Assembly: GCA_027082955.1 (NCBI GenBank)
Contig: JALWTA010000010.1
Span: forward strand, 9,712-73,711
Length of the DNA stretch: 64,000 nucleotides
Direction: 5' to 3'
From: Sulfurovum sp.
GTDB lineage: Bacteria; Campylobacterota; Campylobacteria; Campylobacterales; Sulfurovaceae
Positions within the stretch are counted from its first letter, which is position 1. Each line of letters opens with the position of its first letter. The notes under the pieces are model-generated. The model made no database searches. It was given only the letters and a program-made list of their open reading frames with translations, and was not told the origin of the DNA. Of this stretch, positions 6,126 through 61,001 are shown in pieces. Both the position numbers and the translations under genes were made by a program.

Positions 6126-6131
6126 TATAAT
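6126..6131 (+). promoter_or_regulatory. Candidate -10 box TATAAT for MBOAT copy 1, preceded by an A9 tract
   Basis: A consensus TATAAT lies 26 nt upstream of the TTG start at 6158. An A9 run (6113-6121) lies immediately upstream. This is the only intergenic gap feeding the plus-strand block from 6158 to 14189. Confidence 0.4.
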
Positions 6132-6152
6132 TGCCTAAAAATAAACGGGATA

Positions 6153-7342
6153 CGCCCTTGCTGTTCAACTCCTACGCATTCATTTTTTTCTTTCTGCCGG
6201 TAGTTTTTGCTGTTTATTTTTATCTTAACCAGAGACGGCTGACAGAGGCAGGCAAAGCCTTTTTGGTCGTAGCGTCTCTTTTTTTCTACGCCTGGTGGAA
6301 TGTAAGCTACCTGCCGCTGATACTGGTGTCGATGGTGGTCAACTATGCAATAGGAAGAGAACTGGCACGGCACCAAAAGAACAGAAGAAGCTACTCTCCC
6401 AAAAAACTGCTTGCCGCAGGTGTCGTGTTCAACCTTGGACTGCTGGGATACTACAAATATATGGATTTTTTCCTCGAGAACGTCAACCGCATATTCCATA
6501 GCCATATCCCTCTGCTGCACCTGGCACTGCCGCTTGCGATCAGCTTCTATACCTTCCAGCAGATCTCCTACCTCGTAGACAGTTACAGAGAAGAGACCAA
6601 AGAGTATGACTTTCTTAACTATGCACTCTTTGTGACCTTCTTCCCCCAACTGATCGCAGGGCCTATTGTTCACCATGCAGAGATGATGCCGCAGTTTGCC
6701 AAGACAAGGAACAAAGTAAAGCACTATTACAATATCGCTCTGGGGCTCTTTGTCTTTTCTATGGGGCTGTTCAAAAAAGTGATCATTGCAGATACATTTG
6801 CACAGTGGGCGACCCAGGGGTTCGATGTGTCAAAAGAGCTTAATATGCTCGAAGGATGGGTCACTTCACTCTCCTATACCTTCCAGCTCTACTTTGACTT
6901 CAGCGGCTATACCGATATGGCGATCGGTGCCGCACTGCTGTTCAATATCAAACTGCCGATCAACTTCTTCTCTCCCTACAAGGCAGTCAGTATTCAGGAT
7001 TTCTGGAGGAGATGGCATATTACCCTTTCACGCTTTTTGAAAGATTACCTCTATATTCCGCTTGGCGGGAACAGAAAAGGCAAAATGCGTACCTATATAA
7101 ACCTCTTTGTCACCTTTTTGCTCGGGGGTATCTGGCATGGGGCAGGATGGACTTTTGTCTTTTGGGGCACACTGCACGGCGCGGCACTGGTGATACACCG
7201 TTTCTGGCAGCAGATGGGTATGAAGATGCCTAAGATCCTTGGATGGTTCATTACTTTTAACTTTATCAATATCGCATGGGTCTTTTTCCGGGCAAACAGC
7301 TTTCATGATGCCTTGAAGGTCTTGAAGGGAATGTTCTTGGGT
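6153..7342 (+). repeat. Direct repeat copy 1 (1,190 bp), identical to 11191-12380
   Basis: I compared the two stretches base by base and found no mismatch. All sense and antisense ORFs inside the two copies are identical in the supplied track. Confidence 0.9.
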
Positions 7343-7612
7343 ACGTTTGTCTACCCGGCGGGACTGCCTTTTGCAGACATGGTCAAGCATTGGGGCGCTA
7401 TTGTAGGGAAGTGGAGCTATCCGTTCCTGAAAGAACCGATGATAGGTTATTGGCTTCTTGCCGGTCTGGTTGTCGTACTCTTTTTCCCCAACTCAATGCA
7501 ACTCAAAGAACGCTTCAAAACGAACAGCTGGTACCTGATGTTAACGGTACTCTTTTTCCTTTCGGTCTTTTTTCTGTACAGAAAGAGCGAATTTATCTAT
7601 TTTAACTTTTAA
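6158..7612 (+). CDS. MBOAT-family membrane O-acyltransferase (AlgI/DltB/PatA-like), copy 1
   Basis: I chose TTG 6158, which gives MLFNSYAFIFFFLP. That is the typical family start and equals the start of copy 2. The ORF track extends to TTG 6131. The protein is polytopic, with the MBOAT His in GGIWHGAGW and a C-terminal SEFIYFNF. Confidence 0.85.
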   Translation: MLFNSYAFIFFFLPVVFAVYFYLNQRRLTEAGKAFLVVASLFFYAWWNVSYLPLILVSMVVNYAIGRELARHQKNRRSYSPKKLLAAGVVFNLGLLGYYKYMDFFLENVNRIFHSHIPLLHLALPLAISFYTFQQISYLVDSYREETKEYDFLNYALFVTFFPQLIAGPIVHHAEMMPQFAKTRNKVKHYYNIALGLFVFSMGLFKKVIIADTFAQWATQGFDVSKELNMLEGWVTSLSYTFQLYFDFSGYTDMAIGAALLFNIKLPINFFSPYKAVSIQDFWRRWHITLSRFLKDYLYIPLGGNRKGKMRTYINLFVTFLLGGIWHGAGWTFVFWGTLHGAALVIHRFWQQMGMKMPKILGWFITFNFINIAWVFFRANSFHDALKVLKGMFLGTFVYPAGLPFADMVKHWGAIVGKWSYPFLKEPMIGYWLLAGLVVVLFFPNSMQLKERFKTNSWYLMLTVLFFLSVFFLYRKSEFIYFNF

Positions 7613-7623
7613 GGAGACGTAGC

Positions 7624-8589
7624 GTGACACCTAAAACATACCTCAAACGTCTCTTTGGCGCTTTGGCACTTATCTTCTTTGTTGCTGTTGGATATGTTGC
7701 CTATTTTAATACCTATTACCCTGTTCCGATCACAGATCATATCTCATTTGATGCTAAGCTGAAGTTCGCTAGAGAGAAGATAGACCCCGACGGAGTGGAT
7801 ACACTCATTATAGGTTCATCGATCGGTTTGAACGATCTGCTTGGCACCGAACTGGAAAGGCACTCAAAGCATATTCACAAAGCATTGAACTTTTCTGTTT
7901 ATGGTGCGACCACCCTTCAGGCGGAACAGATTATGGCGCTTATGGATGCCTTTCCTCATTTGAAACGGATCATCTACTCCGTACAGTACTCGGATATGCC
8001 GCACCTATGGAAGTTTAAAGACTATCATCCCAAAACATTGGTAAAATATATTCGTCATGAGCTGAATCCTTTTGCCTATTTGAAACTGCTCTTTGATGCC
8101 TGCAATAACCTGGAATTCTGTTATGAACGTCAGAAAAAGTGGGTTCCCGACCATATGCGGACCAATACGTTCGAGTCGCTGATCTTTGATCCAAGCGGCA
8201 GTGTACCGCTGCATATTTACGGCAAAGATATTATTTGGCACCGGTGGCATCTGCCTCATCCGGGTATCATGCACAGCGAATCGTTCCGGGCGGTTGGGCG
8301 AATGGCAAAAAAGGCACAAGCGCACGGCATCCGTTTTTATGTTGTACATCAGCCCTATCGGAAACCGCTGTATGACACACATAAATCGGTAAGAGATGCC
8401 ATGGCATATTTTGATGCCAAGGTAAAGGCGGCAATGCAGCCGTATAACGGAAAACTCATCCGCATTCAACCGCTTCATCTGGGCGATGCCTATTTTGCAG
8501 ACCGGACGCACCTCAATGACAAAGGCAGTCCGGTGGTTTCGGCCTATGTTGCTAAACAGATAGACAGACTTGAAGATCAAGACCATTAA
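7624..8589 (+). CDS. Membrane-anchored periplasmic SGNH/DltD/AlgJ-like protein, putative acyl-transfer partner of MBOAT copy 1
   Basis: 321 aa. GTG start 7 nt after AAGGAG. It has one N-terminal TM helix, a candidate nucleophile in LIIGSSIG and a DxxH block (ADRTHLNDKG) near the C-terminus. Its position directly downstream of an MBOAT gene matches the algI-algJ, dltB-dltD and patA-patB arrangement. Confidence 0.5.
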   Translation: MTPKTYLKRLFGALALIFFVAVGYVAYFNTYYPVPITDHISFDAKLKFAREKIDPDGVDTLIIGSSIGLNDLLGTELERHSKHIHKALNFSVYGATTLQAEQIMALMDAFPHLKRIIYSVQYSDMPHLWKFKDYHPKTLVKYIRHELNPFAYLKLLFDACNNLEFCYERQKKWVPDHMRTNTFESLIFDPSGSVPLHIYGKDIIWHRWHLPHPGIMHSESFRAVGRMAKKAQAHGIRFYVVHQPYRKPLYDTHKSVRDAMAYFDAKVKAAMQPYNGKLIRIQPLHLGDAYFADRTHLNDKGSPVVSAYVAKQIDRLEDQDH

Positions 8590-8599
8590 GGAGAGAACT

Positions 8600-9172
8600 A
8601 TGCAATTTACACGAACGAAGATCGAAGATGTGATCATCATTGATCCTGTAGTACATGGAGATGAGAGAGGCTATTTTGTGGAAACGTTCCGTCAGGACAA
8701 ACTGGAAGATTTTCTTGGTTTTAAAGTCAATTTTTGTCAGGACAATGAGTCTAAAAGCAGCAAAGGTGTGTTGAGAGGGCTGCACTATCAGCTGACACCG
8801 GCAGCACAGACGAAACTTGTGCGGGTGATCAAAGGACGCGTTTTGGATGTGGCAGTCGATATTCGAAAGGGCAGTCCGACATTTGGAGAGTATGTTGCAG
8901 TTGAACTCAACGAAGAGAACAAACGGCAGCTTTTTGTACCAAGAGGCTTTGCCCACGGGTTTGTTGTGCTTGAGGATGATACGGTCTTTGCCTATAAAGT
9001 AGATAATTACTATTCTCCGGAAAATGACAAGGGGATCGCTTTTGATGACCCTGCCATAGGCATAGATTGGCAGATAGACAAAGCATTGCTGAAACTTTCG
9101 GACAAAGATACAAAACAGCCGCTTCTAAAAGATGCTGACCTCTTTAGCTATGGAGAGAATCTTTATGCGTAA
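8600..9172 (+). CDS. rfbC: dTDP-4-dehydrorhamnose 3,5-epimerase
   Basis: The ATG at 8600 gives MQFTRTKIEDVIIIDPVVHGDERGYFVETF. Cupin motifs RGLHYQ, KLVRVxxGxVxDVAVDxR and VPxGFAHGF are present. The ORF-track start at 8570 is probably a spurious extension. Confidence 0.9.
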   Translation: MQFTRTKIEDVIIIDPVVHGDERGYFVETFRQDKLEDFLGFKVNFCQDNESKSSKGVLRGLHYQLTPAAQTKLVRVIKGRVLDVAVDIRKGSPTFGEYVAVELNEENKRQLFVPRGFAHGFVVLEDDTVFAYKVDNYYSPENDKGIAFDDPAIGIDWQIDKALLKLSDKDTKQPLLKDADLFSYGENLYA

Positions 9173-11189
9173 ACATATTCTTATTACCGGTGCGAACGGA
9201 CAGCTTGGAGGTGAATTCCGTTCTCTGGTGGACAACCGGGAACGTTTTGATACCTCCGATCACTATTTTTTCACCGATAGAGAAACACTGGATATTACCG
9301 ACAAAGAGGCTGTTGAAAACTATGTGATGCAGCACAATATTGATACGATCATCAACTGTGCTGCCTATACGGCGGTCGATAAAGCTGAGGAGGAGGAAGC
9401 ACTTGCCTATCTTATTAATCGTGATGCGGTCAGAAACCTGGCAGAAATTGCCAAAAAATATGATATACATCTGATCCATATCTCTACAGATTATGTGTTT
9501 GACGGTACAAGCCATACCCCTTTGTGTGAAACAGACAGTGTTAACCCCCAAGGTGTCTATGCCAAATCAAAATATGAAGGTGAAGCGGCTATCAGAGAAA
9601 TTGCACCTAAAGGTGCAATGATCATACGTACCTCATGGATCTACAGCAGCATGGGGCACAACTTTGTCAAAACAATGCTGCGCGTGGGCAGTGAACGGGA
9701 TGAAATACGTGTTGTGTGTGACCAGATAGGGACGCCAACCTATGCAAGAGATCTTGCGAGGGCAATTCTTACGATCATTGCATCAGAGAGCCAGAGCGAT
9801 GAAGTCAAAACGTATCACTACAGCAATGAAGGGAACTGCTCCTGGTACGATTTCGCACAGGCGATCTTTGAGATCGCACAGGTTGACTGCCGTGTTACTC
9901 CCATCAGTACCCATGAGTATCCGACACCGGCAAAACGTCCTTCTTACAGTGTTCTCAACAAAGATAAGATCAAATATGAGTATGGTCTTGACATCCCCTA
10001 CTGGAGAGATTCACTCAGGTCCTGTATCTCGCTGCTGGACTTCAAAGAGGTCAAGCGTTACAAGATCGGTATTATTGGTTCAGGTTTTATTGCCAACGGA
10101 TTGGCAAAACTGCTGCTGCAGCATCCTGACTATGAATTGAAAGCGGTATTGACCCGAAGTGATTTAAGCAAGCGCAGTGATTTTGTCAAACCTGAGGTAT
10201 TGACCAATGACCTTGAGGTATTGCTTGATACGTGTGATTTGATCGTAGAATGCAGCGGAGATGCCATCTATGCAACCGAGACGATCGACAGAATCATCAA
10301 AGAGGACATACCGGTTGTGACGATGAACTCAGAGTTTCATGTGACTACAGGTTCTTACTTTGTGGACAAAGGGTTGGTTACGGAAGCCGAGGGGGATCAG
10401 CCCGGTGTCGAGGCTATTTTGTATGAAGAGGCGCTGGCAATGGGCTTTAGACCATTGGCATTTGTCAATATCAAAGGTTTTCTGAATGAAAATCCGACAA
10501 GAGAAGAGATGGAGTACTGGGGTGGACGCTCAAATCTCTCCCTGGAAATGGTAACTTCGTTTACGGACGGAACAAAGGTACAGATAGAACAGGCACTTGT
10601 TGCCAATGGTCTTGGCGGATGTATTGCACAGGAGGGGCTGCTTAAGCTGAAAGATGACGACATGCTTCATGGCGGTACTATTTTGGCGGACAAGGCTAAG
10701 GAACTGGGCTGTCCGGTCAGTGACTATGTGCTCTCTCCAAAACTGCCTGCCGGTGTTTTTTTGGTGGTAGAACATGATGAAGAGCAGGCAGGATCACTGC
10801 GTTACTACAAACTTGGGGAAGGTCCCTACTATGTTTTGGAGCGTACTTATCATCTTTGCCATCTTGAGATCATTAAAACGATCAAACGGGTACTGGGCGG
10901 TGGTGGTGTCCTGCTAAATAACGGCAGTGATCCGAAATTGAGTGTCGCAGCCATTGCAAAACATGACATTATGCCCGGTGATACGCTGAAAAAGGGCATC
11001 GGCAGTTTCGATGTACGCGGCGAAGCGGTATATATTGAGAAGCATCCTGACCATGTGCCCATAGGACTGCTTGCTGATGCGACGTTTGTGCGTGAGGTTA
11101 AAGAAGGGCAGATCGTAACCTTTGCAGATGTGGAACTTCCGGAGAGTCTGGCGCTGGATATCTGGAAGCGTATGCACATCAAAGGCTGA
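9165..11189 (+). CDS. Fusion protein: dTDP-4-dehydrorhamnose reductase (RmlD) N-terminal domain plus a homoserine-dehydrogenase-like NAD-binding domain ending in a SAF domain (COG4091-like)
   Basis: ATG 9165 overlaps the rfbC stop (ATGCGTAA). Residues 1 to about 295 are RmlD-like: ILITGANGQLG, STDYVFDG, YAKSKYEGE, PTPAKRPSYSVL. A second Rossmann motif KIGIIGSGFIANG then follows, with EGDQPG and a C-terminal beta-clip-like SAF segment (IMPGDTL...VKEGQIVTFADVE). Confidence 0.7.
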   Translation: MRKHILITGANGQLGGEFRSLVDNRERFDTSDHYFFTDRETLDITDKEAVENYVMQHNIDTIINCAAYTAVDKAEEEEALAYLINRDAVRNLAEIAKKYDIHLIHISTDYVFDGTSHTPLCETDSVNPQGVYAKSKYEGEAAIREIAPKGAMIIRTSWIYSSMGHNFVKTMLRVGSERDEIRVVCDQIGTPTYARDLARAILTIIASESQSDEVKTYHYSNEGNCSWYDFAQAIFEIAQVDCRVTPISTHEYPTPAKRPSYSVLNKDKIKYEYGLDIPYWRDSLRSCISLLDFKEVKRYKIGIIGSGFIANGLAKLLLQHPDYELKAVLTRSDLSKRSDFVKPEVLTNDLEVLLDTCDLIVECSGDAIYATETIDRIIKEDIPVVTMNSEFHVTTGSYFVDKGLVTEAEGDQPGVEAILYEEALAMGFRPLAFVNIKGFLNENPTREEMEYWGGRSNLSLEMVTSFTDGTKVQIEQALVANGLGGCIAQEGLLKLKDDDMLHGGTILADKAKELGCPVSDYVLSPKLPAGVFLVVEHDEEQAGSLRYYKLGEGPYYVLERTYHLCHLEIIKTIKRVLGGGGVLLNNGSDPKLSVAAIAKHDIMPGDTLKKGIGSFDVRGEAVYIEKHPDHVPIGLLADATFVREVKEGQIVTFADVELPESLALDIWKRMHIKG

Positions 11190-11190
11190 T

Positions 11191-12380
11191 CGCCCTTGCT
11201 GTTCAACTCCTACGCATTCATTTTTTTCTTTCTGCCGGTAGTTTTTGCTGTTTATTTTTATCTTAACCAGAGACGGCTGACAGAGGCAGGCAAAGCCTTT
11301 TTGGTCGTAGCGTCTCTTTTTTTCTACGCCTGGTGGAATGTAAGCTACCTGCCGCTGATACTGGTGTCGATGGTGGTCAACTATGCAATAGGAAGAGAAC
11401 TGGCACGGCACCAAAAGAACAGAAGAAGCTACTCTCCCAAAAAACTGCTTGCCGCAGGTGTCGTGTTCAACCTTGGACTGCTGGGATACTACAAATATAT
11501 GGATTTTTTCCTCGAGAACGTCAACCGCATATTCCATAGCCATATCCCTCTGCTGCACCTGGCACTGCCGCTTGCGATCAGCTTCTATACCTTCCAGCAG
11601 ATCTCCTACCTCGTAGACAGTTACAGAGAAGAGACCAAAGAGTATGACTTTCTTAACTATGCACTCTTTGTGACCTTCTTCCCCCAACTGATCGCAGGGC
11701 CTATTGTTCACCATGCAGAGATGATGCCGCAGTTTGCCAAGACAAGGAACAAAGTAAAGCACTATTACAATATCGCTCTGGGGCTCTTTGTCTTTTCTAT
11801 GGGGCTGTTCAAAAAAGTGATCATTGCAGATACATTTGCACAGTGGGCGACCCAGGGGTTCGATGTGTCAAAAGAGCTTAATATGCTCGAAGGATGGGTC
11901 ACTTCACTCTCCTATACCTTCCAGCTCTACTTTGACTTCAGCGGCTATACCGATATGGCGATCGGTGCCGCACTGCTGTTCAATATCAAACTGCCGATCA
12001 ACTTCTTCTCTCCCTACAAGGCAGTCAGTATTCAGGATTTCTGGAGGAGATGGCATATTACCCTTTCACGCTTTTTGAAAGATTACCTCTATATTCCGCT
12101 TGGCGGGAACAGAAAAGGCAAAATGCGTACCTATATAAACCTCTTTGTCACCTTTTTGCTCGGGGGTATCTGGCATGGGGCAGGATGGACTTTTGTCTTT
12201 TGGGGCACACTGCACGGCGCGGCACTGGTGATACACCGTTTCTGGCAGCAGATGGGTATGAAGATGCCTAAGATCCTTGGATGGTTCATTACTTTTAACT
12301 TTATCAATATCGCATGGGTCTTTTTCCGGGCAAACAGCTTTCATGATGCCTTGAAGGTCTTGAAGGGAATGTTCTTGGGT
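11191..12380 (+). repeat. Direct repeat copy 2 (1,190 bp), identical to 6153-7342
   Basis: Same evidence as copy 1. The offset is exactly 5,038 bp. The repeat begins 1 nt after the TGA of the rfbD-fusion gene. Confidence 0.9.
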
Positions 12381-12680
12381 GATACAGATATGAAAACATA
12401 TCTTCAAGGACTCTATGACCAAGCAAATCCAATTGCACAATGGTTCAATCTTAATAGTGGTGCCTACCATGCACCGTTCAATCTGTTCGCTTTGGCAATG
12501 GTAATGGTGGGATTGTTGATTGTCCTGTTCTTCCCAAACTCCAATGAGCTTGCCGGTATTTTTCATGCGAAGAAGCGTGTTTCTTGGCGATATTATCTGT
12601 TATCGGTACTGCTGTTTGGTACCGCATTGGCAATGATGAGTGTTTCGCATGGATCTGAATTTCTCTATTTTAATTTTTAG
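11196..12680 (+). CDS. MBOAT-family membrane O-acyltransferase, copy 2 (identical to copy 1 for 395 codons, divergent last ~100 codons)
   Basis: 494 aa with a TTG start. It equals copy 1 through VLKGMFLG, then diverges and ends SEFLYFNF. Confidence 0.85.
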   Translation: MLFNSYAFIFFFLPVVFAVYFYLNQRRLTEAGKAFLVVASLFFYAWWNVSYLPLILVSMVVNYAIGRELARHQKNRRSYSPKKLLAAGVVFNLGLLGYYKYMDFFLENVNRIFHSHIPLLHLALPLAISFYTFQQISYLVDSYREETKEYDFLNYALFVTFFPQLIAGPIVHHAEMMPQFAKTRNKVKHYYNIALGLFVFSMGLFKKVIIADTFAQWATQGFDVSKELNMLEGWVTSLSYTFQLYFDFSGYTDMAIGAALLFNIKLPINFFSPYKAVSIQDFWRRWHITLSRFLKDYLYIPLGGNRKGKMRTYINLFVTFLLGGIWHGAGWTFVFWGTLHGAALVIHRFWQQMGMKMPKILGWFITFNFINIAWVFFRANSFHDALKVLKGMFLGDTDMKTYLQGLYDQANPIAQWFNLNSGAYHAPFNLFALAMVMVGLLIVLFFPNSNELAGIFHAKKRVSWRYYLLSVLLFGTALAMMSVSHGSEFLYFNF

Positions 12681-12689
12681 GAGCATGGC

Positions 12690-14189
12690 GTGAGCAAGAA
12701 ACGGTATATCTTTATGATGCTGGCAGGAAGTCTGCTCTTTTTGCTGGTGCTGCCTGTGTTCAATTATCTCCATGACCAGTGGCGCGTACTCCATCGGGAT
12801 TTTGCCTATGCCTATGATGATATTGCGATCAACAAATCCTACTTGAAAACAGTCTATCTTTTGGCACATCCAAACCGGTATGATACACTGTTGTTTGGTT
12901 CTTCCAGAAATGCAGCTTTTGTAGAGACCGATATTGCACCGCATGCCTACAATGCCTATGCTGATTTTGGTGTAATAGGACAACACCTGCATACGCTTGA
13001 GATTTTGCTGGGACACGGCTTGGCTTTGAAAGAAGTGTGGATAGGGATCAATGATTTTGATATATGGAAAGATCCTAAAGATTTTGAAAAGGACTATTCC
13101 AAGCGGGTGTATCATGAAGATATAGAGGGGATATTTGACTTTTACAGACTTTATCTGTTTAAGCCTGTTGACAACAATGACCTTGCCATTATGAAAGGCA
13201 AATTCAAATTGGCTCCAAGTAACCGAATTTACCGTAAAGCGCTTGACAAACACAGACAAACATTGATAGACAAAGAGAAAAGTTTGCAAGAAAAAGGTAT
13301 GCGCTGGCGTAAAAAACTTACTTCGACTGCCGCGACACTGCTTGGCTACAAGGATGATCCCAAACAGTACAGAATCTCAAAAAGTATCGATGAGATCAGA
13401 AGGATCAAGCGTCTTTGTCAAAAACATCATGTTAAAACGGTTTTTTTCTTCTACCCGGCATTCTACAAAACCTATATGATGTACAACCAGTCCAGAATAG
13501 AAACTTTCAAACGTAAACTGGCAGAGGTGACAGATTTCTACGATTTTTATCGTCTTGATGCGACTGCAATGGATGAAACAAAATGGACAGATACCAGCCA
13601 CTTTGTCTATAGCGTCGCCTTTCAAATGGTTCAGGATATTAAACATGGGAAGCATCTTGTAACACACAGTAACTGTGAAAGCGTATTGAGACAAGAGCGT
13701 CAAATGGCTACAGAACAGTTACTGCGTAAACAACTTCCAATACCGTATGTAATGCGTTTTAACGGTACGATCCTGCCAAGTGGAACCGATGTACTATTTG
13801 ATATGAAAAAGGGTAGTTATGTCCCAAATGTACAGACCAGAGTGCAGACTGACACTGAGGGCATCAAGGTGAAAAGTCTTGGTACTGATCCAAATTTGTT
13901 GTTTGGTCCGGTGCTTTCAAAAACGCAGAATGTGGTGTTACATTGTGAGATGACAAGTCAATACAAGACACTTTTTCAGCTTTTTTACAAGGTTGGCAAG
14001 GATGCCCGTTTCAATGAACATGATGCGGTTAAATTCGGGTTACACAAAGGGCTGAACCGTTTTAACCTGCTGATCCCTTCTGCTTGGCTAAGGTATGGTT
14101 TCCGCATGGATCCGGGGCAGAAACCCGGTGATTATTTGATCAAGAAAATGGAGATATTTGGAGAGAAAAAATGTGCTTCAGGAGAGTGA
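12690..14189 (+). CDS. Membrane-anchored periplasmic SGNH/DltD/AlgJ-like protein with an extra C-terminal beta-rich module, putative partner of MBOAT copy 2
   Basis: 499 aa. GTG start after AGGAG, with the same junction layout as partner 1. It has an N-terminal TM helix, LLFGSSRN and a TDTSHF (DxxH) block. Residues from about 385 to 492 form a module also seen in the 695-aa and 615-aa proteins. Confidence 0.5.
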   Translation: MSKKRYIFMMLAGSLLFLLVLPVFNYLHDQWRVLHRDFAYAYDDIAINKSYLKTVYLLAHPNRYDTLLFGSSRNAAFVETDIAPHAYNAYADFGVIGQHLHTLEILLGHGLALKEVWIGINDFDIWKDPKDFEKDYSKRVYHEDIEGIFDFYRLYLFKPVDNNDLAIMKGKFKLAPSNRIYRKALDKHRQTLIDKEKSLQEKGMRWRKKLTSTAATLLGYKDDPKQYRISKSIDEIRRIKRLCQKHHVKTVFFFYPAFYKTYMMYNQSRIETFKRKLAEVTDFYDFYRLDATAMDETKWTDTSHFVYSVAFQMVQDIKHGKHLVTHSNCESVLRQERQMATEQLLRKQLPIPYVMRFNGTILPSGTDVLFDMKKGSYVPNVQTRVQTDTEGIKVKSLGTDPNLLFGPVLSKTQNVVLHCEMTSQYKTLFQLFYKVGKDARFNEHDAVKFGLHKGLNRFNLLIPSAWLRYGFRMDPGQKPGDYLIKKMEIFGEKKCASGE

Positions 14190-20710: not shown

Positions 20711-21916
20711 TTAGAGCGGCAGTCGGCTGAGATATGCTTCAAAGCCTCTAAAGGAACCTGATATAGAAGCTTTTCCTCCCTGCTCTTCCAATTCATACTG
20801 TATGGCAATGAGTGTGACCTCCCAGTCTTCCGGATTGAGTCCGAAGTTCTGCCCAGCAACTTCAGGCGGAGGGTTGTCCTGAAGAGCAGCGAGGACTGCA
20901 CGAATATTTTGGTAAGCGATATTAACACGGTAAAAGTCATTCCATTGCCCATCATCGGCAGTTGACTTGTTTGGTGTGTTCGTTACTTCCTGGATCGAAC
21001 GTGATTTTGGCGATTTGGTACACCACCACGAATCATCTTTGGCAACTGTTGCGACATGGACGATACCGGTAGTAGGGTCAAATCGGATACCGGCACGCTC
21101 TTCCTGCCATGCCGAACCGTACGCATAGATGCCGATTACAAAATTCAAATGTTTATTGATCTTTGGGTTGTACAGGAAAACATTAAATGAAACCCCACCA
21201 CCGATATTGGATTCGTAATTGTGGTAGATAGGCAGGTCGAAACTGCCTTGAAGCATCAGGTTGCCCGTACCGTCACTTTTCCATGGCATAATGTGGGTAC
21301 TAGGACGTATCTGGTAGGTGAATGTGCTGCCGATACCTGAGTAGGTCAATGCCTGTTCCGGGGCATCATAAAGGTTGAGGGTGGTGCCTGCTGCAAGTGC
21401 ACCATTAACACATTTGGATTCGCCTACCACGCCACTTGGGTCTATTTGCGAAAAATCACTGCCTATGATAGTATTGCGGTTACCGGTTCTGGCATCGATA
21501 CCGGTCAGTACGGAGTGGTTGGCAAAATGTGTACCATCACCGTTATAGAGATAGCGTGAAACAGGATTGGTATAGCGGAAATCCCAAAATGGTTTGAGTA
21601 CTTCTGAAAAAGGATAGGAATAGAGATTGGCTGTGGCAGAGAAATACCGACCTGCTGCCTCTGTTTGTGTCATAAAGTGGACAAACCCGACATCAGCATT
21701 GCTACTGCACTGGGAAGTGATAATAGGTGTTTTGTCGGCTTCATTTTGCTGGAAGGTTACAGTAAAAGGACGCGAACCTCTTGTATCGGCAGTACCTTTG
21801 TACTCTTCATATTTGTGTTTTACACGTTCAAGTTCTTTTTTGGCTTTATCGATAAGCTGGCATCCGGAGAAGATGAGAAGAAAAGGGAAAAGCAATAGAA
21901 TGATTCTGTGTTTCAT
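20711..21916 (-). CDS. Lipoprotein of unknown function
   Basis: 401 aa. The signal peptide has the lipobox LIFSGC. The mature part looks beta-rich and carries no motif I recognise. It is embedded between two glycan genes in the same operon-like run. Confidence 0.5.
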   Translation of the reverse strand: MKHRIILLLFPFLLIFSGCQLIDKAKKELERVKHKYEEYKGTADTRGSRPFTVTFQQNEADKTPIITSQCSSNADVGFVHFMTQTEAAGRYFSATANLYSYPFSEVLKPFWDFRYTNPVSRYLYNGDGTHFANHSVLTGIDARTGNRNTIIGSDFSQIDPSGVVGESKCVNGALAAGTTLNLYDAPEQALTYSGIGSTFTYQIRPSTHIMPWKSDGTGNLMLQGSFDLPIYHNYESNIGGGVSFNVFLYNPKINKHLNFVIGIYAYGSAWQEERAGIRFDPTTGIVHVATVAKDDSWWCTKSPKSRSIQEVTNTPNKSTADDGQWNDFYRVNIAYQNIRAVLAALQDNPPPEVAGQNFGLNPEDWEVTLIAIQYELEEQGGKASISGSFRGFEAYLSRLPL

Positions 21917-21951: not shown

Positions 21952-23031
21952 TTATAGCGAATTTTCTACTTGTTTTCGCCATTTGAATCCACGTTCCTCT
22001 ATCTGATAGTAGCTTAGGGACGATATACCTAAAAGTGAAACAACGAAGATCGTGATGATCATAGGCATAGAAGGGTGGTGCGGAAGCAGATAGTGGTCGA
22101 TCAGAAAGAGAATGGGCATATGCCAAAGATAGACAGAGTAGGAGATTTTGCCTATCCATTCTATAAATCCTACACCTTTTGGATCACTGTTGAACAGAAG
22201 TATGAAAAGAGCACTGACGATCAGCAGCATAGCGATGTTTCTAAACAGAAAGCTCTCTTGCATGAAAGAGTATGTCGAAAGGTAGACAAAAAAAACACCC
22301 AGTGCTATAGCAAGTATGTATCGGATAGAAAAACCGATACGGGGTGTGTAGACGACATAGCGGTAGATCAGAATGCCACTGATGAAATAGATGATCTGAC
22401 CAGGAAGCTGAAATGAAAGATAGTATGCAATAAGCATATAGTTGCTTGCAGATCTGTCAAGGTGGAGAAGGGTATCATACCATCCCCGGTCGATACCGAA
22501 GAGATAGAGCATCCCTGCAAAAAAAAGTATCATAAGATAACGGCTTTTGTGTACATAAAGGAAAAGCAGCGGTGCAATGAAATACCAAAGCATTTCTACA
22601 TTGAGAGTCCAGTATGCACCATTGATACCATAACCGGCATCTTTGTAGATAAAGTACGAAGTAAATGTCAAGTGACTTAACAGTGATTTTAAAAATCCGA
22701 ATGAAATCGGATGTGAAATACCAAAGAAAGCACCGTAGAGCATAATGACAAAAAGAAGATTGGCATAGTAGGCAGGAAGGATCCGAAAGAGCCTGTGAAG
22801 CGCATAGCGAACAAGTCCGCGTTTAGGATTCTCCTGGGAGAGATAAAAACTGACAGAACGGTAGATGAGGTAGCCGCTGATGATAAAAAAGAGTGCCACT
22901 CCGAACTGACCGAAAAAGTGAATATAGCCAAATACCGGCTCTCCCATCAGGTGCAGTAGTACATAAAAATGATAGATAACAACACTGATGACTGCAATTC
23001 CCCGAAGAAGGTCTATTCCTTTCAATCTCAT
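21952..23031 (-). CDS. Acyltransferase family 3 membrane O-acyltransferase
   Basis: 359 aa. It has IDLLRGIAVISVVIYHF and about 10 TM helices. ATGA overlap with the upstream gene. Confidence 0.8.
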   Translation of the reverse strand: MRLKGIDLLRGIAVISVVIYHFYVLLHLMGEPVFGYIHFFGQFGVALFFIISGYLIYRSVSFYLSQENPKRGLVRYALHRLFRILPAYYANLLFVIMLYGAFFGISHPISFGFLKSLLSHLTFTSYFIYKDAGYGINGAYWTLNVEMLWYFIAPLLFLYVHKSRYLMILFFAGMLYLFGIDRGWYDTLLHLDRSASNYMLIAYYLSFQLPGQIIYFISGILIYRYVVYTPRIGFSIRYILAIALGVFFVYLSTYSFMQESFLFRNIAMLLIVSALFILLFNSDPKGVGFIEWIGKISYSVYLWHMPILFLIDHYLLPHHPSMPMIITIFVVSLLGISSLSYYQIEERGFKWRKQVENSL

Positions 23032-26000
23032 ACGACAGTATTGTCCTGTTGTGCTTTTGTGACCGTTCTCAGCACAGCATCTGCCGAAACTTCATCGATA
23101 ATATATCCTTTGTCATACATCTTTACCCGTTCGGCAGGGGCACCAAGGTCAAAGACCATAAGCGGAAGTTCCATCTGCATGATCTCTTCTGCTGTGTAGG
23201 AGAAGGTCTCCGGCCAGATTGACGGAATAAAGAAAAGATCGACGTGGTAATGCTGTATGATCTCAGGAAGTATATTTCGTTGGTATTTTCCTGTTAAACT
23301 GTAATGCGGACTTTCTATCGGTTCTGTGATTTCACCAATGACTACTACGTTAATATTGAGATCTTCCGCATCGATACGTGAGACCAAATCTTTAACCATT
23401 GCAGCCCCTTTGGCGTAGTTGATCGCTCCAAGAACACCAACTGTAAAAGGCGCATCTTTCTCTTTTGGTGGAAGTGAAAGAGGTGTCATATCCGTGACTT
23501 TGTGCGGCAATACTTCAATATTGGCACTTTCAAGACCAGGGTATGCTTTTAGCAAGATCTCTTTTGAGCTCTGGCTAAAGCAGAGAATAGAGCTGCTAAG
23601 ATGCAGTAGACGGTCCCAGAGCAGACGCCATGTATCAATATCGGCAGGCTCCGGATGATAAGTTTTCCATTCAAGCCGATTGCGTCCCATGCAGTCACGA
23701 CATGTCTGGATATCAGGGATATCACAATATGTGCCGGTATCATTGAGGAGTGTATAGCTTGGGCAGACTGCATAGAAATCATGCAAAGGTATGATGAGGT
23801 CAATATTACGACGATTGATAAAGTGTTCAAGGTATTCCAGTATCTCTTTACTGTTTGTATAGGAGACAAGACTGTTTAGAAATACCGTATCGACACGTAG
23901 TTGCTCCAAAAGTATCTCTACGCCATTAAGTGTATCGATGGAGAAGAGGGATTCGTATGATTTGTATCGATGATGGATCGAGAACTTGTTTGTATAGAAA
24001 TCAAATCTGATCATAAGGGTATTTTCCCCTTCTGCATGTTTGTTCTCTACCAGAGCATCTGCATAATGATTCGCACCTCCTCCAAGAGCATGATCGAACA
24101 TGATCCACATCGGTTTTTTCAGGGAAGATGCAGTAAGTACCAACAGTTTCCGAAGTGTATGATGCGGATCTTGCTGAATATAACGTTGTACTTGTTTGTC
24201 ATAATCAGGATGGCGGGTAAGGAGTTTGCTGTAATTTTCTTCCAGAAGCTTCTGTTTAAGCACCGAAGGGAAAGATCCGCCATGTTTGTGATATACAAAG
24301 AGGTTAGGTACGAGTATGTTGGTATAGCCGTGTTCTATCGCGCGTTGGCACCAGTCATTCTCCTCTCCGTAACCTTTTCCGAATGTTTCGATATCGAAAA
24401 ATCCTATTTCCTGAACAACATCATAATTGACGCCCATACAGAAACCGACCCCTGTCGGCAGATGTGCATAATAGGGTATGGGATTGATTTTTTGGAACAT
24501 ACTGTCAAGCTGTGTAACGGACAATGCTTCAAAAATGGGGTTATCTTCAAGGAATTTCGGGAAACTTGCGATAGTACCGGAGTTTGTAAACGGAGTGGTC
24601 GAAGCGACCTTTGGCATGTGAAAAACAGGATACATCAGACGTTCAAGCCAGAAAGGTGGCAGTTCTGTATCGGTATTGAGAATAACGAAATGACCCTCTG
24701 CTTTTTCTACGGCACGATTGACACTGCGTACGAAACCAAGGTTCTCTTCATTATCAAGTAGTGTAGCATGGTCGAATTCTGAAAGTCTTCTTTGTAAGTA
24801 AGGCAGTACACGTTCATCAGGGCTGGCATCATTGACTACAATCAATCTATACGGATGGGATGTGTTTTCTTTGAGGGTGTTGAAGAGAATCTCAAGAAAA
24901 TCATATCCATTATAGACAGGTATAATAATATTGATCCTTGTATGTTCAGGCAAAGCATACTGCTTGGGGTCGAAAGAGATGAAATCACGCTTTGGATCAA
25001 TAGAGAGTGCATTGCCCGACTGACGAAGATTGGTTTGCATCTTTTCTTTTAGCTTTTCCCACATATAACGGAACTCTCCGCGTTTAAGATAGTAGAAAAG
25101 TTTTCTTGCCGCAGCCGGGTTGGCTTTGAAGAGTGAAGCTGCTGTTGAGAATTTCTCTGCCGCAGAAGGTTTCGGCAGGGCAGGGGTCTCTTTGCCGAGT
25201 TTGGTACGTACATGTTTTATAACTTCGGATGGAAGATTTTTAAGACGGTTTTTCAGGCGCATTGATTCTGCAAGTGTTTCCATCTCTTTGGCATACTGCT
25301 TCAGTGCCTGCATCTCATCGATCAGTTCATTGACCTTTTCAAAGATATCCTGCCCTGCATATTGCTGGGAAAGTACCAGCGATGCAGTCTCTTCAGTCAG
25401 TGATACAGGTAGTGCAGCATAGTCAGCAGGGCTGGGTGCAATATACATGCCCTGTTGTTGCACAAGGATACCCAAAAAACGTTCGATCGCATGTGCAACG
25501 GTATGATCTTTTTGTCCACGCTCCTCTTCAAAATCAAGTTCACCGTTTTGAAAGAGTGTCAGCAATGGTGCGAGAAGTTTACTGCGTGTCCAGAACATTG
25601 TGCCACCGGCAAATGTATAGTCTGCAGAAAAAGGTATGTTCGCTGCTTCACACAGCTGTTTGATCTTTGTATTGTTCCCGTAGGCATAACGTTGTGAATC
25701 AAGAATGGTATGTCTGCCCGTGATCTGCCCGATATTAGGATCTTCTGCAAAAAGATTCATTGTTTTCGTTACAGTCTCCGGCGAACCAATCAGATCAAAA
25801 TAGAGCATTTTTCGCCAAACACTGCCAAGCGGGCTTTCACCCGTTTTTTTAGTATGTAGTTTGCATAGATAAGTATAGGTATCGATACCGATATGGTTCA
25901 TAACAAGCAGGAAAGGCAATACATCTCTTCCGCGATTTTCGACTGTGTAGAGGGTTGCTTGCGGGCATGCCTGCAGGATGCGCATGGCATCCGATTCATC

Positions 26001-26201
26001 AATGTGCTTTGGTAGTGTAACATAGAGATCATACGGCATATCCAGAGCAGATAGGTAGCGGTATATCTCTTCCCATATGTCAGGATAGAAAAGGTGGATG
26101 ATAATAGCAGTTCTGGCATGTGTGCCACGGATAGGTTCCGGCTCTTTCCTGAAAATGCGGTCGGATGCAAAAACGATTTGTTCAAAAAGATAGGATTTCA
26201 T
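23028..26201 (-). CDS. Three-domain glycosyltransferase: RgpF-like (rhamnan synthesis F) N-domain, coiled-coil/Pro-Lys linker, GT2 domain, GT-B (GT4-like) C-domain
   Basis: 1,057 aa. Residues about 30-255 are RgpF-like (IIHLFYPDIW, VENRGRDVLPF, KLHTKK). Residues about 283-395 are heptad-rich and contain SMRLKNRLK. Residues about 422-650 form a GT2 domain (INIIIPVYNG, VVNDASPD, NTDTE). Residues about 695-1050 are GT-B-like. Confidence 0.7.
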   Translation of the reverse strand: MKSYLFEQIVFASDRIFRKEPEPIRGTHARTAIIIHLFYPDIWEEIYRYLSALDMPYDLYVTLPKHIDESDAMRILQACPQATLYTVENRGRDVLPFLLVMNHIGIDTYTYLCKLHTKKTGESPLGSVWRKMLYFDLIGSPETVTKTMNLFAEDPNIGQITGRHTILDSQRYAYGNNTKIKQLCEAANIPFSADYTFAGGTMFWTRSKLLAPLLTLFQNGELDFEEERGQKDHTVAHAIERFLGILVQQQGMYIAPSPADYAALPVSLTEETASLVLSQQYAGQDIFEKVNELIDEMQALKQYAKEMETLAESMRLKNRLKNLPSEVIKHVRTKLGKETPALPKPSAAEKFSTAASLFKANPAAARKLFYYLKRGEFRYMWEKLKEKMQTNLRQSGNALSIDPKRDFISFDPKQYALPEHTRINIIIPVYNGYDFLEILFNTLKENTSHPYRLIVVNDASPDERVLPYLQRRLSEFDHATLLDNEENLGFVRSVNRAVEKAEGHFVILNTDTELPPFWLERLMYPVFHMPKVASTTPFTNSGTIASFPKFLEDNPIFEALSVTQLDSMFQKINPIPYYAHLPTGVGFCMGVNYDVVQEIGFFDIETFGKGYGEENDWCQRAIEHGYTNILVPNLFVYHKHGGSFPSVLKQKLLEENYSKLLTRHPDYDKQVQRYIQQDPHHTLRKLLVLTASSLKKPMWIMFDHALGGGANHYADALVENKHAEGENTLMIRFDFYTNKFSIHHRYKSYESLFSIDTLNGVEILLEQLRVDTVFLNSLVSYTNSKEILEYLEHFINRRNIDLIIPLHDFYAVCPSYTLLNDTGTYCDIPDIQTCRDCMGRNRLEWKTYHPEPADIDTWRLLWDRLLHLSSSILCFSQSSKEILLKAYPGLESANIEVLPHKVTDMTPLSLPPKEKDAPFTVGVLGAINYAKGAAMVKDLVSRIDAEDLNINVVVIGEITEPIESPHYSLTGKYQRNILPEIIQHYHVDLFFIPSIWPETFSYTAEEIMQMELPLMVFDLGAPAERVKMYDKGYIIDEVSADAVLRTVTKAQQDNTVV

Positions 26202-59031: not shown

Positions 59032-59916
59032 CTAAATGATTTTCTGTTCAGCGCGTCTGAGCAGGTATTGGCCGTACTGGTTCTTCTTTAGTGGTTGAGC
59101 CAGTTCTATGAGCTTCTCTTTGTTGATGTAACCCATTTCGTAAGCGATCTCTTCGATACAGGCGACTTTGAGCCCCTGACGGTTTTCGATGGTCTGGATG
59201 AAGTTGGAGGCTTCAAGCAGGCTTTCGTGGGTGCCGGTATCGAGCCACGCGTAGCCTCTGCCCATCAGCTTGACCTTCAGACGTTTTTCTTCAAGATACA
59301 TCTGGTTGAGGGTGGTGATCTCCAGTTCACCACGGTCGCTTGGCTTGACCTCTTTGGCTTTTTTGACCACATCGTTGGGGTAGAAGTAGAGCCCCACCAC
59401 AGCATAGTTGCTTTTTGGGTTTTCCGGCTTCTCTTCAATGGAGATGACGTTACCTTCCTCATCGAACTCGGCAACCCCGTAGCGCTCCGGATCTTTGACA
59501 TAGTAGCCAAAGACGGTAGCAGCATTGTGTTCTGTGGCGTTGCTAACAGAAGTTGCAAGCATCTGTGTCAGACCGTGTCCGTAGAAAATGTTGTCACCCA
59601 GTACCAGTGCTACATCGTCATCACCGATGAACTCTTCACCAAGAATGAACGCCTGTGCCAGCCCGTCCGGGCTTGGCTGTACGACGTAGCTGAACTGCAT
59701 ACCGATATCACTTCCGTCTCCTAGCAGCTGCTCAAAACGCGGCAGGTCTGTCGGTGTGGAGATGATGAGCACTTCCGTAATGCCTGCAAGCATCAGGACC
59801 GAAAGCGGATAGTAGATCATCGGTTTGTCATAGATGGGAACCAGCTGTTTGCTGACCCCTTTGGTGATAGGGTAGAGCCGTGTGCCTGACCCGCCTGCTA
59901 AAATGATGCCTTTCAT
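59032..59916 (-). CDS. rfbA: Glucose-1-phosphate thymidylyltransferase
   Basis: ATG 59916 gives [18 protein letters not shown]. It also has [11 protein letters not shown] and LGDNIF. ATGA overlap with the rfbB stop. Confidence 0.9.
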
Positions 59917-61001
59917 ACACTGTCTCCTAATCGTTCTCTTTGGTAGCTGCCGTCCTGTACGGCTCTCCACCATGCCTCATTGTCGAGGTACCACTGTACG
60001 GTCTTTTCCAGACCGGTTTCGAAGGTCTCCTGCGGTTTCCATCCAAGCTCCCGTTCGATCTTCGATGCATCGATAGCGTAGCGTACATCGTGTCCCGGGC
60101 GGTCTTTGACAAATGTGATAAGCTCCGAATAGCTGCGCAATGTTGAATTTTGAGTGTTGAATTTTGAATTGGCAGAAATGGGGATCTTTTTGTCAAGGAT
60201 CTGGCAGATGGTCTTGACCACTTCGATATTCTGTTTTTCGTTGTGCCCGCCGATGTTGTAGGTTTCGCCTATCTCTCCGGTTGTGGCGACGAGTACGAGT
60301 GCTCTGGCATGATCCTCAACGTAGAGCCAGTCGCGGATCTGGTCTCCTTTGCCGTAAATAGGCAGGGGTTTGCCTTCAAGGGCATTGAGAATAACAAGCG
60401 GGATGAGCTTTTCTGGGAAATGGTACGGCCCGTAGTTGTTGGAGCAGTTGGTTACCAGTGTGGGGAAACCGTAGGTACGCTGCCATGCGCGTACAAGGTG
60501 GTCTGAACTTGCTTTTGAGGCAGAGTATGGGGAACTTGGTGCGTAAGGGGTTGTTTCGGTAAAAAGATCGTCTGTACCTTCAAGGTCGCCATAGACCTCA
60601 TCGGTTGAGATGTGGTGAAAACGGAATCTCTTCTGTTTTGCCTCATCGAGGGTGTTGTAATATTTGCGTCCCTCATCCAGCAGGGTGTAGGTACCGAAAA
60701 TATTGGTCTTGATGAACTCTCCTGGGCCGTCGATGGAACGGTCTACATGGGACTCTGCCGCAAGGTGCATGACAATGTCAGGCTGATGTTCTCTGTAGAC
60801 ACGTGCGATCTCTGAAGCATCACAGATATCGACCTGCTCAAAACTGTATCGTGGAGAATCGCTGACAGACTCAAGTGATTGGAGATTTCCTGCATAGGTG
60901 AGTTTGTCCACATTGACCACTTCGTGATCGGTATTCTCGATGAGGTGGCGAATGACAGCCGATCCGATAAATCCGGCACCGCCGGTTACTAAAAACTTCA
61001 T
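59913..61001 (-). CDS. rfbB: dTDP-glucose 4,6-dehydratase (with a repeat-encoded loop insertion)
   Basis: 362 aa. Motifs [33 protein letters not shown] and [12 protein letters not shown]. Confidence 0.9.
60141..60168. repeat. Tandem 14-bp duplication inside rfbB (tgttgaattttgag / tgttgaattttgaa)
   Basis: Read directly from the sequence. There are two adjacent 14-nt units that differ at one base. Confidence 0.85.

Follow-up and report, generated by a model that had tools for sequence, protein, structure and literature searches.

A fusion of RmlD with a DRL-like oxidoreductase in Sulfurovum sp., and the place of its free-standing relatives in rml operons

We analysed a 64,000-nucleotide stretch of Sulfurovum sp. 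DNA (contig JALWTA010000010.1 of assembly GCA_027082955.1, positions 9,712 to 73,711; hereafter the window), in which a long open reading frame (ORF) overlaps the end of rmlC, the gene of deoxythymidine diphosphate (dTDP)-4-dehydrorhamnose 3,5-epimerase. Our analysis showed that this ORF encodes a complete dTDP-4-dehydrorhamnose reductase (RmlD; the N-half) joined to a second oxidoreductase (the C-half) related to DRL/DXR-II of Brucella abortus. Free-standing relatives of the C-half, which we refer to as DLO1-type, were found in the usual rmlD position of rml operons. The coordinates of the fusion and of the other genes discussed are collected in Table 1.

The ORF listing gives another ATG upstream in the same frame, at 9132, which would yield 685 residues. 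The ATG at 9165 is more likely to be the start, because a GGAGAG motif lies 8 nt upstream of it, because start and rmlC stop codon overlap as ATGCGTAA, and because the resulting length matches that of the homologues (672–680 residues). A first-pass annotation, made from the sequence alone, had recognised a complete RmlD in the first ~295 residues, and the profile searches agreed. PF04321 (RmlD_sub_bind, Pfam) matched residues 4–289 with an E value of 4e-102, and the rmlD equivalog TIGR01214 (NCBIfam) scored 324.7 bits against a cutoff of 224.05, covering model positions 2–282 of 285. The fold of the N-half was also that of RmlD in a structure comparison (TMt 0.94, root-mean-square deviation 2.0 Å and 44% identity to 1VL0), with 3SC6, 8CTR and 4WPG comparably close. 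The signature of the short-chain dehydrogenases/reductases (SDRs) is complete, with the glycine-rich NAD(P)H motif GANGQLG, STDYVF and YAKSK. By every sequence and fold criterion, the N-half is thus an ordinary RmlD, with the predicted activity of reducing dTDP-4-keto-6-deoxy-L-mannose to dTDP-L-rhamnose. This predicted activity fits the context, in which rmlC overlaps the fusion and rmlA and rmlB lie inside the window.

The same annotation had noted that no stop codon and hardly a linker separate the two halves. We found an uninterrupted ORF, in which the junction (...CISLLDFKEVKRYKIGIIGSGF, nt 10035–10058) has neither a stop nor an internal start codon and amounts to the eight residues DFKEVKRY. 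In the structural model these lie between a helix (280–290) and a strand (299–304), and the predicted local distance difference test score (pLDDT) drops to 69. The second Rossmann domain, the EGDQPG motif and the SAF-like end that had been described are all present, and both KIGIIGSGFIANG and EGDQPG occur in the protein as quoted earlier. NAD_binding_3 (Pfam) matched residues 305–389 with an E value of ~7e-11, and the Rossmann columns G, L, T and R are invariant in the alignments of the clade. It is followed by a DRL_cat domain. The match to the SAF family PF08666 was weak (17.9 bits against a 21-bit cutoff), and the alignment to DRL extends across this C-terminal domain.

Table 1. The RmlD–DLO1 fusion, its domains and other genes of the window
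Feature	Position (nt)	Strand	Residues	Remarks
Whole fusion ORF	9165..11189	+	674	Translated without interruption; single terminal stop
RmlD domain, dTDP-4-dehydrorhamnose reductase	9165..10034	+	1-290	PF04321, TIGR01214; GANGQLG, STDYVF, YAKSK
Linker DFKEVKRY	10035..10058	+	291-298	From final RmlD helix to first strand of second Rossmann fold
Second NAD(P)-binding Rossmann domain	10059..10379	+	299-405	NAD_binding_3; GIIGSGFIANG, near-invariant LTR after strand 2
DRL-type catalytic domain	10392..10871	+	410-569	PF21135 DRL_cat, E 2e-31; invariant EGDQPG, TDGTKxQxE
C-terminal SAF-like beta domain	10950..11135	+	596-657	PF08666 below cutoff; beta-rich, pLDDT >90
rmlC, dTDP-4-dehydrorhamnose 3,5-epimerase	8570..9172	+		PF00908, E 2e-73; TIGR01221, 245.8 bits (cutoff 155.75); stop overlaps fusion start (ATGCGTAA)
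MBOAT O-acyltransferase	6131..7612	+		Upstream copy
Partner protein	7624..8589	+	321	No Pfam match
1057-aa glycosyltransferase	23028..26201	-	1057	Modules RgpF (rhamnan synthesis), GT2 and GT1
rmlA	59032..59973	-		TIGR01207, 493.7 bits (cutoff 360.65)
rmlB	59913..61001	-		TIGR01181, 518.4 bits (cutoff 365.1)

A search of ~5.8 billion proteins for the same architecture, as had been proposed with the first-pass annotation, gave over 120 clusters (90% identity), all with PF04321 and PF21135 (668–698 residues, 63–94% identity, query coverage 99–100%). Far from being rare, the fusion is found widely among Campylobacterota and also occurs in some Flavobacteriia. The clusters derive from independent assemblies (ENA, JGI, NCBI and Logan); among the carriers named are metagenome-assembled genomes of Sulfurovum and of ‘Epsilonproteobacteria’, as well as Algibacter and Lutibacter citreus through RefSeq proteins. 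The fusions are all labelled merely ‘dTDP-4-dehydrorhamnose reductase’ in the databases, and the full-text literature, in a coverage that leaves out most subscription journals, held no functional study of the clade or of the fusion, in agreement with the earlier remark that no characterisation of this fusion was known.

Across 27 aligned fusions, the length of the junction differs by no more than ~4 residues, and the RmlD motifs GxxGQxG, STDYVF and YxxSK are kept in all 27. Mean pairwise identity among them is 75% for the C-half against 59% for the N-half, and both halves are intact and under selection. The G+C contents of the two halves are similar (0.455 and 0.476), and the fusion was found at 13 genome loci. 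A lost stop codon, a frameshift or an assembly join at the junction was in practice ruled out by the more than 120 clusters, the nearly fixed junction length, the 13 loci and the even G+C content.

The solved structure closest to the C-half is that of Brucella abortus DRL/DXR-II (3UPL/3UPY), with an E value of 1.3e-28 over residues 32–361 of a 379-residue query. Foldseek against the PDB gave the same answer (E 1.5e-30, TMq 0.86), with a model of the C-half alone that had a pLDDT of 89 and a predicted template-modelling score (pTM) of 0.90; sequence identity to the Brucella enzyme was 24–30%. The remaining PDB matches, at about E 1e-8 and template-modelling (TM) scores below 0.5, were homoserine dehydrogenases, dihydrodipicolinate reductase and Gfo/Idh/MocA enzymes, and no sugar-nucleotide-binding structure was nearer than DRL in this search. 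Homoserine, aspartate and diaminopimelate dehydrogenases were also considered and rejected: the Rossmann part alone matches them, weakly and far under the cutoffs (23.9 bits against 205 for the homoserine dehydrogenase model PRK06349), and TM scores to homoserine dehydrogenase structures stay below 0.5.

In DXR-II, the substrate and fosmidomycin are anchored by Lys191, Lys193 and Thr229 (PMC3847144). In the alignment with DRL, these positions correspond to N435, K437 and V472 of the fusion, so that two of the three anchors are replaced. Across the clade the Asn and the Lys are invariant and the Val is nearly so, and D225, K228, E232 and K193 of DRL are retained. The same work described DLO1 and DLO2 as ‘DXR-II-like oxidoreductases’ (Carretero-Paulet et al. 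2013, PMC3847144), gave no function for them and mentioned neither rhamnose nor fusions. There, position 229 is Thr in DXR-II, Leu, Ile or Val in DLO1, and Pro, Ser or Ala in DLO2; four DLO representatives gave no complementation of a dxr mutant; and M. palustris was placed under DLO1. The C-half has Val at the aligned position, which is a DLO1 state, and in our locus scan a Methanosphaerula homologue was 56% identical to it. The C-half thus fits the DLO1 group by one diagnostic residue and by the overlap of taxa. Its likeness to the DLO proteins and to COG4091 lies in the hydrophobic residue at 229, in shared taxa (Methanosphaerula, cyanobacteria) and in COG4091-type source names, while neither an rml-operon link nor a fusion to RmlD figures in the published description.

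The C-half is not a DXR-II, because K191N and T229V remove anchors of the phosphonate or phosphate and because its context is one of rml and polysaccharide genes. The Brucella enzyme has the same three-domain fold (Rossmann, DRL_cat and SAF-like) but is an isoprenoid enzyme that keeps K191 and T229, whereas the C-half has Asn and Val, stands in an rml context and is fused to RmlD. A profile search of this half, which the first-pass annotation had suggested, upheld the COG4091-like architecture; the closest characterised relative, Brucella DRL/DXR-II, had gone unnamed there, and the C-half failed the residue test for that enzyme.

The assignment to COG4091 agreed with the source names of free-standing homologues, one of which is that of COG4091 itself, ‘Predicted homoserine dehydrogenase, contains C-terminal SAF domain’; others are ‘NAD(P)-dependent oxidoreductase’, ‘SAF domain-containing protein’ and ‘predicted homoserine dehydrogenase-like protein’. 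The domain order of COG4091, with a homoserine dehydrogenase-type NAD-binding, a catalytic and a SAF domain, is found in the C-half, the first two above their cutoffs and the third below, and some homologues carry PF08666. We infer that the D-G-T/S-K...E motif is an Asp/Lys catalytic pair like that of homoserine dehydrogenases. The clade alignments also have a near-invariant Thr-Arg after Rossmann strand 2. By the general rules of the Rossmann fold, this is the usual NADPH signature, and the C-half is therefore predicted to use NADPH.

When 1.84 billion representatives were searched exhaustively with HMMER, only 801 relatives of the C-half came out at E < 1e-3; the nearest are free-standing proteins of 370–410 residues with 40–53% identity. 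No NCBIfam model covers this family. The fused and the free-standing forms have in common the invariant residues GDQPG, TDGTK..E, H..CH.E..K..R and R-G, and the neighbourhoods of the free-standing forms are therefore informative for the fused domain.

We then scanned GTDB, with a single genome for each species, using an alignment of eight C-half sequences, and obtained 80 loci, from Campylobacterota, Flavobacteriia, Bacillaceae, Cohnella, cyanobacteria, Hydrogenophaga, Verrucomicrobiota, Azospirillaceae, Chloroflexota and methanogens. ORFs were called, families were clustered within five genes on each side, and the largest families were annotated. At the 62 free-standing loci recognised in this way, the most frequent neighbours were an RmlA-type nucleotidyltransferase (27), an RmlB-type 4,6-dehydratase (25), RmlC (24) and a GT2 glycosyltransferase (19). 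The homologues in rml operons are 50–66% identical to the C-half. In Virgibacillus, Ornithinibacillus and Siminovitchia they close the order GT2-rmlA-rmlC-rmlB-DLO1; Evansella and Lentibacillus have either rmlB-rmlC-DLO1 or rmlA-rmlB-rmlC-DLO1, and the cyanobacterium Myxacorys has rmlB-rmlA-rmlC-DLO1; in a free-standing Sulfurovum case, ugd and an epimerase-like SDR gene are followed by rmlA-DLO1-rmlC-rmlB. This shows that the DLO1-type gene occupies the usual rmlD position in rml operons.

RmlD itself was searched for with a hidden Markov model (HMM) built from the fused RmlD halves, over ~10 kb on each side, and matches of 100 bits or more were taken as genuine. Scores above 250 bits were obtained by the fusions and at six Bacillaceae loci, where RmlD lies eight to nine genes upstream of DLO1. 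A six-frame recount of 83 loci, independent of ORF calling, gave 13 loci with the fusion, seven with a separate RmlD and 63 without RmlD in this range. RmlC is present at 31 of the 63, and 23 of these 31 also have RmlA or RmlB; at 16 to 23 loci, rmlA, rmlB, rmlC and DLO1 stand together with no RmlD within 10 kb. The partner RmlCs are canonical, with 238–269 bits against the TIGR01221 cutoff of 155.75. The seven loci with a separate RmlD are the six Bacillaceae clusters and one in Methanosphaerula subterraneus, an archaeal operon (locus L041, 6876–11128) in which rmlC-rmlB-rmlD-rmlA is directly followed by DLO1, so that RmlD and DLO1 are separate genes. Where both occur, in the 13 fused loci, the Methanosphaerula operon and the six Bacillaceae clusters, RmlD and DLO1 are plainly non-redundant.

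In a neighbour-joining tree without support values, the fused C-halves of Campylobacterota and Flavobacteriia formed one clade, with the Flavobacteriia nested within it and free-standing Sulfurovum genes as its sister. This nesting suggests transfer between phyla, with a single fusion event in Campylobacterota and later transfer to Flavobacteriia. Compared with the fusion of the window, those of Flavobacteriia have 73–74% identity in the C-half and just 53–54% in the RmlD half. One divergent metagenomic sequence (P0121, C-half identity 52%) has an RmlD–DLO1 fusion in an rmlC-rmlB-[fusion] operon; it branches apart from the main fused clade and possibly represents an independent fusion. Another (P0124) is a fusion of DLO1 to GT2, and both fusions lean in the same direction as the gene neighbourhoods. 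The N-terminus of the protein P0136 had no Pfam match.

These neighbourhoods lead us to propose, tentatively, that the C-half is a second reductase at the dTDP-4-keto-6-deoxyhexose branch point, probably NADPH-dependent, with a product other than L-rhamnose. Operons of rmlA, rmlB and rmlC with DLO1 and without rmlD indicate that the DLO1 enzyme can complete the pathway from the product of RmlC or RmlB. The stable coexistence of RmlD and DLO1 in one protein, one operon or one cluster indicates in turn that DLO1 is no mere duplicate of RmlD. As free-standing homologues take the RmlD slot with no RmlD within 10 kb, action on the 4-keto intermediate in parallel with RmlD is suggested, and not action after it. 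RmlB and RmlC would thus supply a dTDP-4-keto-6-deoxyhexose pool common to both halves. The N-half would reduce the RmlC product, dTDP-4-keto-6-deoxy-L-mannose, to dTDP-L-rhamnose, while the C-half would turn the same keto pool into another 6-deoxyhexose. Its simplest product would be the C4 epimer, dTDP-6-deoxy-L-talose, and, starting from the RmlB product, D-fucose or D-quinovose could be formed instead; substrate, direction and cofactor are likewise predicted. A single polypeptide, translationally coupled to rmlC, could in this way provide a pair of donor sugars for building a surface polysaccharide with heavy O-acylation. 6-Deoxy-L-talose often carries O-acetyl groups in the polysaccharides that are known, and the many O-acyltransferase genes of the window would be in keeping with this.

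The first-pass annotation had suggested that the product of RmlD, or the 4-keto intermediate, is channelled into a further oxidoreduction. The general idea of a further oxidoreduction is backed by the gene neighbourhoods, but the onward channelling of the RmlD product is not favoured, with DLO1 standing in the RmlD slot. Channelling between the two domains found no support: in the full-length AlphaFold model the halves are well folded, while the pTM is 0.63.

Several points weigh against the proposed parallel reductase. No confident inter-domain orientation was obtained in that full-length model. At 32 of the 63 free-standing loci without nearby RmlD there is no rml gene in the same DNA, and the absence of RmlD covers 10 kb per side only, which leaves room for a role after RmlD. 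The fusion of Flavobacteriia (two Algibacter loci, one of Lutibacter and one more) is isolated, with no rml or polysaccharide genes as neighbours. P0121 and P0124 are singleton metagenomic sequences and carry little weight. The stereochemistry of the product is a guess, and all routes to 6-deoxy-L-talose known to us, including those of Tll, Tal and Tle, use SDR enzymes.

Of the other explanations, the one that survives best places the C-half after RmlD in the pathway, with dTDP-L-rhamnose as its substrate. By way of a keto intermediate, transient or stable, this sugar would be oxidised or epimerised at C2, C3 or C4, yielding a modified 6-deoxy-L-hexose or a keto-sugar. The fusion to RmlD, the rmlC-rmlB-rmlD-rmlA-DLO1 order of Methanosphaerula and the two-gene Bacillaceae clusters are all compatible with it, and the distant fold relatives include RgNanOx and GnnA, NAD-dependent sugar oxidoreductases with transient oxidation, as weak Foldseek matches. 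However, each of the 16–23 genomes with rmlA, rmlB, rmlC and DLO1 but no RmlD within 10 kb would need an rmlD elsewhere, and the Thr-Arg signature of the NADPH type would suggest a reductive and not an oxidative role. We consider action after RmlD unlikely.

In rmlACB operons without RmlD, DLO1 stands exactly where RmlD is expected, a pattern that is classic for non-orthologous displacement. The C-half could accordingly be a non-SDR dTDP-4-dehydrorhamnose reductase that makes dTDP-L-rhamnose itself; in that case two enzymes of the fusion would serve a single reaction, differing for example in cofactor preference or regulation. This is distinctly improbable, as the fusion of two enzymes of the same function would be unusual, both halves are conserved and stay joined throughout more than 120 clusters, and RmlD and DLO1 also stand as separate genes in the operon of Methanosphaerula and in the six Bacillaceae clusters.

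The C-half could also belong to a different pathway, reducing some other nucleoside diphosphate (NDP)-4-keto sugar of the cluster, with the fusion to RmlD serving co-expression only; an example would be UDP-4-keto-6-deoxy-N-acetylglucosamine from a PglF/WbpM-like dehydratase, reduced to N-acetylquinovosamine (QuiNAc) or N-acetylfucosamine (FucNAc). Such a role is suggested by Hydrogenophaga and related Betaproteobacteria, where at seven loci DLO1 has a 649-aa gene before it and a gene for a 655-aa OafA-like acyltransferase after it, with no rml neighbours and in most cases a small Bac_transf gene upstream; one further locus (L065) has the same arrangement minus the downstream acyltransferase. 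The 649-aa gene is 41% identical to the window protein at 41588–43333, whose best family matches are the UDP-N-acetylglucosamine 4,6-dehydratases PseB and FnlA, both under their cutoffs. If this family assignment is right, the 649-aa protein would make an NDP-4-keto-6-deoxy sugar, and a producer of such a sugar would be shared by these loci and the rml operons, in line with our main proposal as well; these loci suggest a UDP-4-keto-6-deoxy-N-acetylhexosamine substrate in the Hydrogenophaga-type subclade. For the family as a whole, the association with RmlC, RmlA and RmlB extends over far more phyla than that with the 649-aa gene, and the possible second fusion, P0121, lies inside an rml operon. 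We regard a different pathway for the fused C-half as a slim chance.

A bolder idea, which we rate as quite remote, is that the DLO1 domain retains the reductoisomerase chemistry of DXR. It would act on dTDP-4-keto-6-deoxy-L-mannose by an alpha-ketol or retro-aldol rearrangement followed by reduction with NADPH; the product would be a 6-deoxy sugar with a branched chain or a contracted ring, of the same type as dihydrostreptose, and DXR-II would have been derived from such a sugar-nucleotide reductoisomerase. A milder version is much likelier, with a chance approaching even: the clade would consist of previously unrecognised non-SDR terminal reductases of NDP-4-keto-6-deoxyhexoses.

That the C-half is a DXR-II, a 1-deoxy-D-xylulose-5-phosphate reductoisomerase of the methylerythritol phosphate (MEP) pathway accidentally joined to RmlD, is extremely improbable: Brucella DRL/DXR-II is indeed the sole close solved structure, but identity to it is low, two of the three anchors are changed, Val at 229 is the DLO1 state, the DLO representatives assayed did not complement a dxr mutant (PMC3847144), and the neighbours are rml and polysaccharide genes, not those of the MEP pathway. 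Least of all can we credit a merging of two genes through sequencing or assembly error, given the identical architecture in more than 120 independent clusters and at 13 loci with a conserved junction and halves of similar G+C content; a perfect 1190-bp repeat that begins 2 nt past the fusion stop calls for caution about the local assembly, yet leaves the junction untouched.

We compared the fusion with known systems. Known RmlD/RfbD enzymes (EC 1.1.1.133; 1VL0, 3SC6 and 1KBZ) are single-domain proteins of ~280–300 residues. The 290-residue N-half is a full member of this family, with its gene coupled to rmlC, and the fusion adds a C-terminal non-SDR oxidoreductase of 376 residues. Tll and Tal, dTDP-6-deoxy-L-talose 4-dehydrogenases (EC 1.1.1.134, 1.1.1.339), and Fcd, a dTDP-4-keto-6-deoxyglucose reductase, share the role proposed for the C-half, that of an alternative terminal reductase diverting dTDP-4-keto-6-deoxyhexose from L-rhamnose. 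They are SDRs homologous to RmlD, whereas the C-half has an unrelated catalytic domain of the homoserine dehydrogenase/DRL type, and the likeness would be a functional analogy only. Multi-domain enzymes of the rhamnose pathway are also known from Prymnesium parvum (RmlC/D) and from plants (RHM, NRS/ER; PMC6556577), and fusions of RmlC with RmlD, RmlA with RmlB and RmlA with RmlC have been listed (bioRxiv 10.1101/854612). The Prymnesium and plant proteins, like the fusions listed, join known rml activities of consecutive or related steps, whereas the fusion described here adds a DRL-like domain without an assigned activity; no such domain occurs in the rhamnose-pathway fusions described in these two sources.

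The fusion itself was already in the databases, while the occupancy of the RmlD slot by a DRL-like family across phyla appears to be new. If our proposal is right, several hundred sequence clusters from Campylobacterota, Bacillaceae, cyanobacteria, methanogens and Proteobacteria would gain a role as the non-SDR terminal enzyme of dTDP-6-deoxyhexose synthesis. Current annotation would then mislead twice, since fusions are labelled as plain RmlD and genomes with rmlACB and DLO1 may be scored as incomplete for rhamnose. An origin of DXR-II, the alternative MEP enzyme of relevance to antibiotics, from sugar-nucleotide reductases would also be suggested. Should the C-half instead be a redundant analogue of RmlD, the case would be a modest one of non-orthologous displacement.

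The fusion is the sole RmlD of the window. The genes rmlA and rmlB lie 48 kb from rmlC and the fusion, within the same very large polysaccharide region, and their predicted products would supply dTDP-4-keto-6-deoxy-D-glucose. This region has an ABC exporter, two Bac_transf phosphotransferases and several GT2 and GT1 genes. It also has two MBOATs, two Acyl_transf_3 proteins, a GDSL protein and a YdjC, and, among the sugar genes, a UDP-glucose dehydrogenase gene and genes resembling PglF/WbpM, FnlA and TviC. The 1057-aa RgpF-GT2-GT1 protein is likely to polymerise dTDP-6-deoxyhexose donors. Two ORFs of the cluster, at 15495–17582 (+, 695 aa) and 20711–21916 (-, 401 aa), had no Pfam match. Among related loci, the nearest have 92% (L076) and 87% (L004) identity. 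The block of MBOAT, 321-aa gene, rmlC and fusion is complete in both of these and in L005 and L006; L010 has the block without MBOAT, and L011 without rmlC.

At eight Bacillaceae loci, rmlA-rmlC-rmlB-DLO1 adjoins four kinds of gene downstream. Asparagine-synthase-like genes, one or two in number, occur there with genes for a P-loop protein resembling HPr-kinase-C and for a metallophosphoesterase, and with ORFs of ~95 residues. By analogy, this set resembles lasso-peptide clusters with tailoring kinases, and a peptide decorated with a 6-deoxyhexose is conceivable as a possibility. At five loci a gene for a 395-aa FAD-dependent oxidoreductase (PF01266 DAO, E 2e-59) lies between or beside DLO1 and rmlC, and at a sixth at position +3; it recurs in several phyla and has no homologue in the window.

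The perfect 1190-bp direct repeat mentioned above occupies 6153–7342 and 11191–12380, with a spacing of 5038 bp. It corresponds to the first ~395 codons of the two MBOAT genes (6131–7612 and 11196–12680), whose C-termini diverge afterwards, and its copies lie on either side of the 321-aa gene, rmlC and the fusion. The relatives retain the upstream MBOAT and not the downstream one. This suggests gene conversion, a duplication that is recent, or a fault in the assembly. Each MBOAT is directly followed by a gene whose product had no Pfam match, the 321-aa gene after the first and a 499-aa gene (12690–14189, +) after the second. Apart from a short DTL(I/L)xGSS motif the two proteins are unrelated, and they probably act outside the cytoplasm as partners of the MBOATs in O-acylation. 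Relatives also keep the 321-aa family beside rmlC and the fusion.

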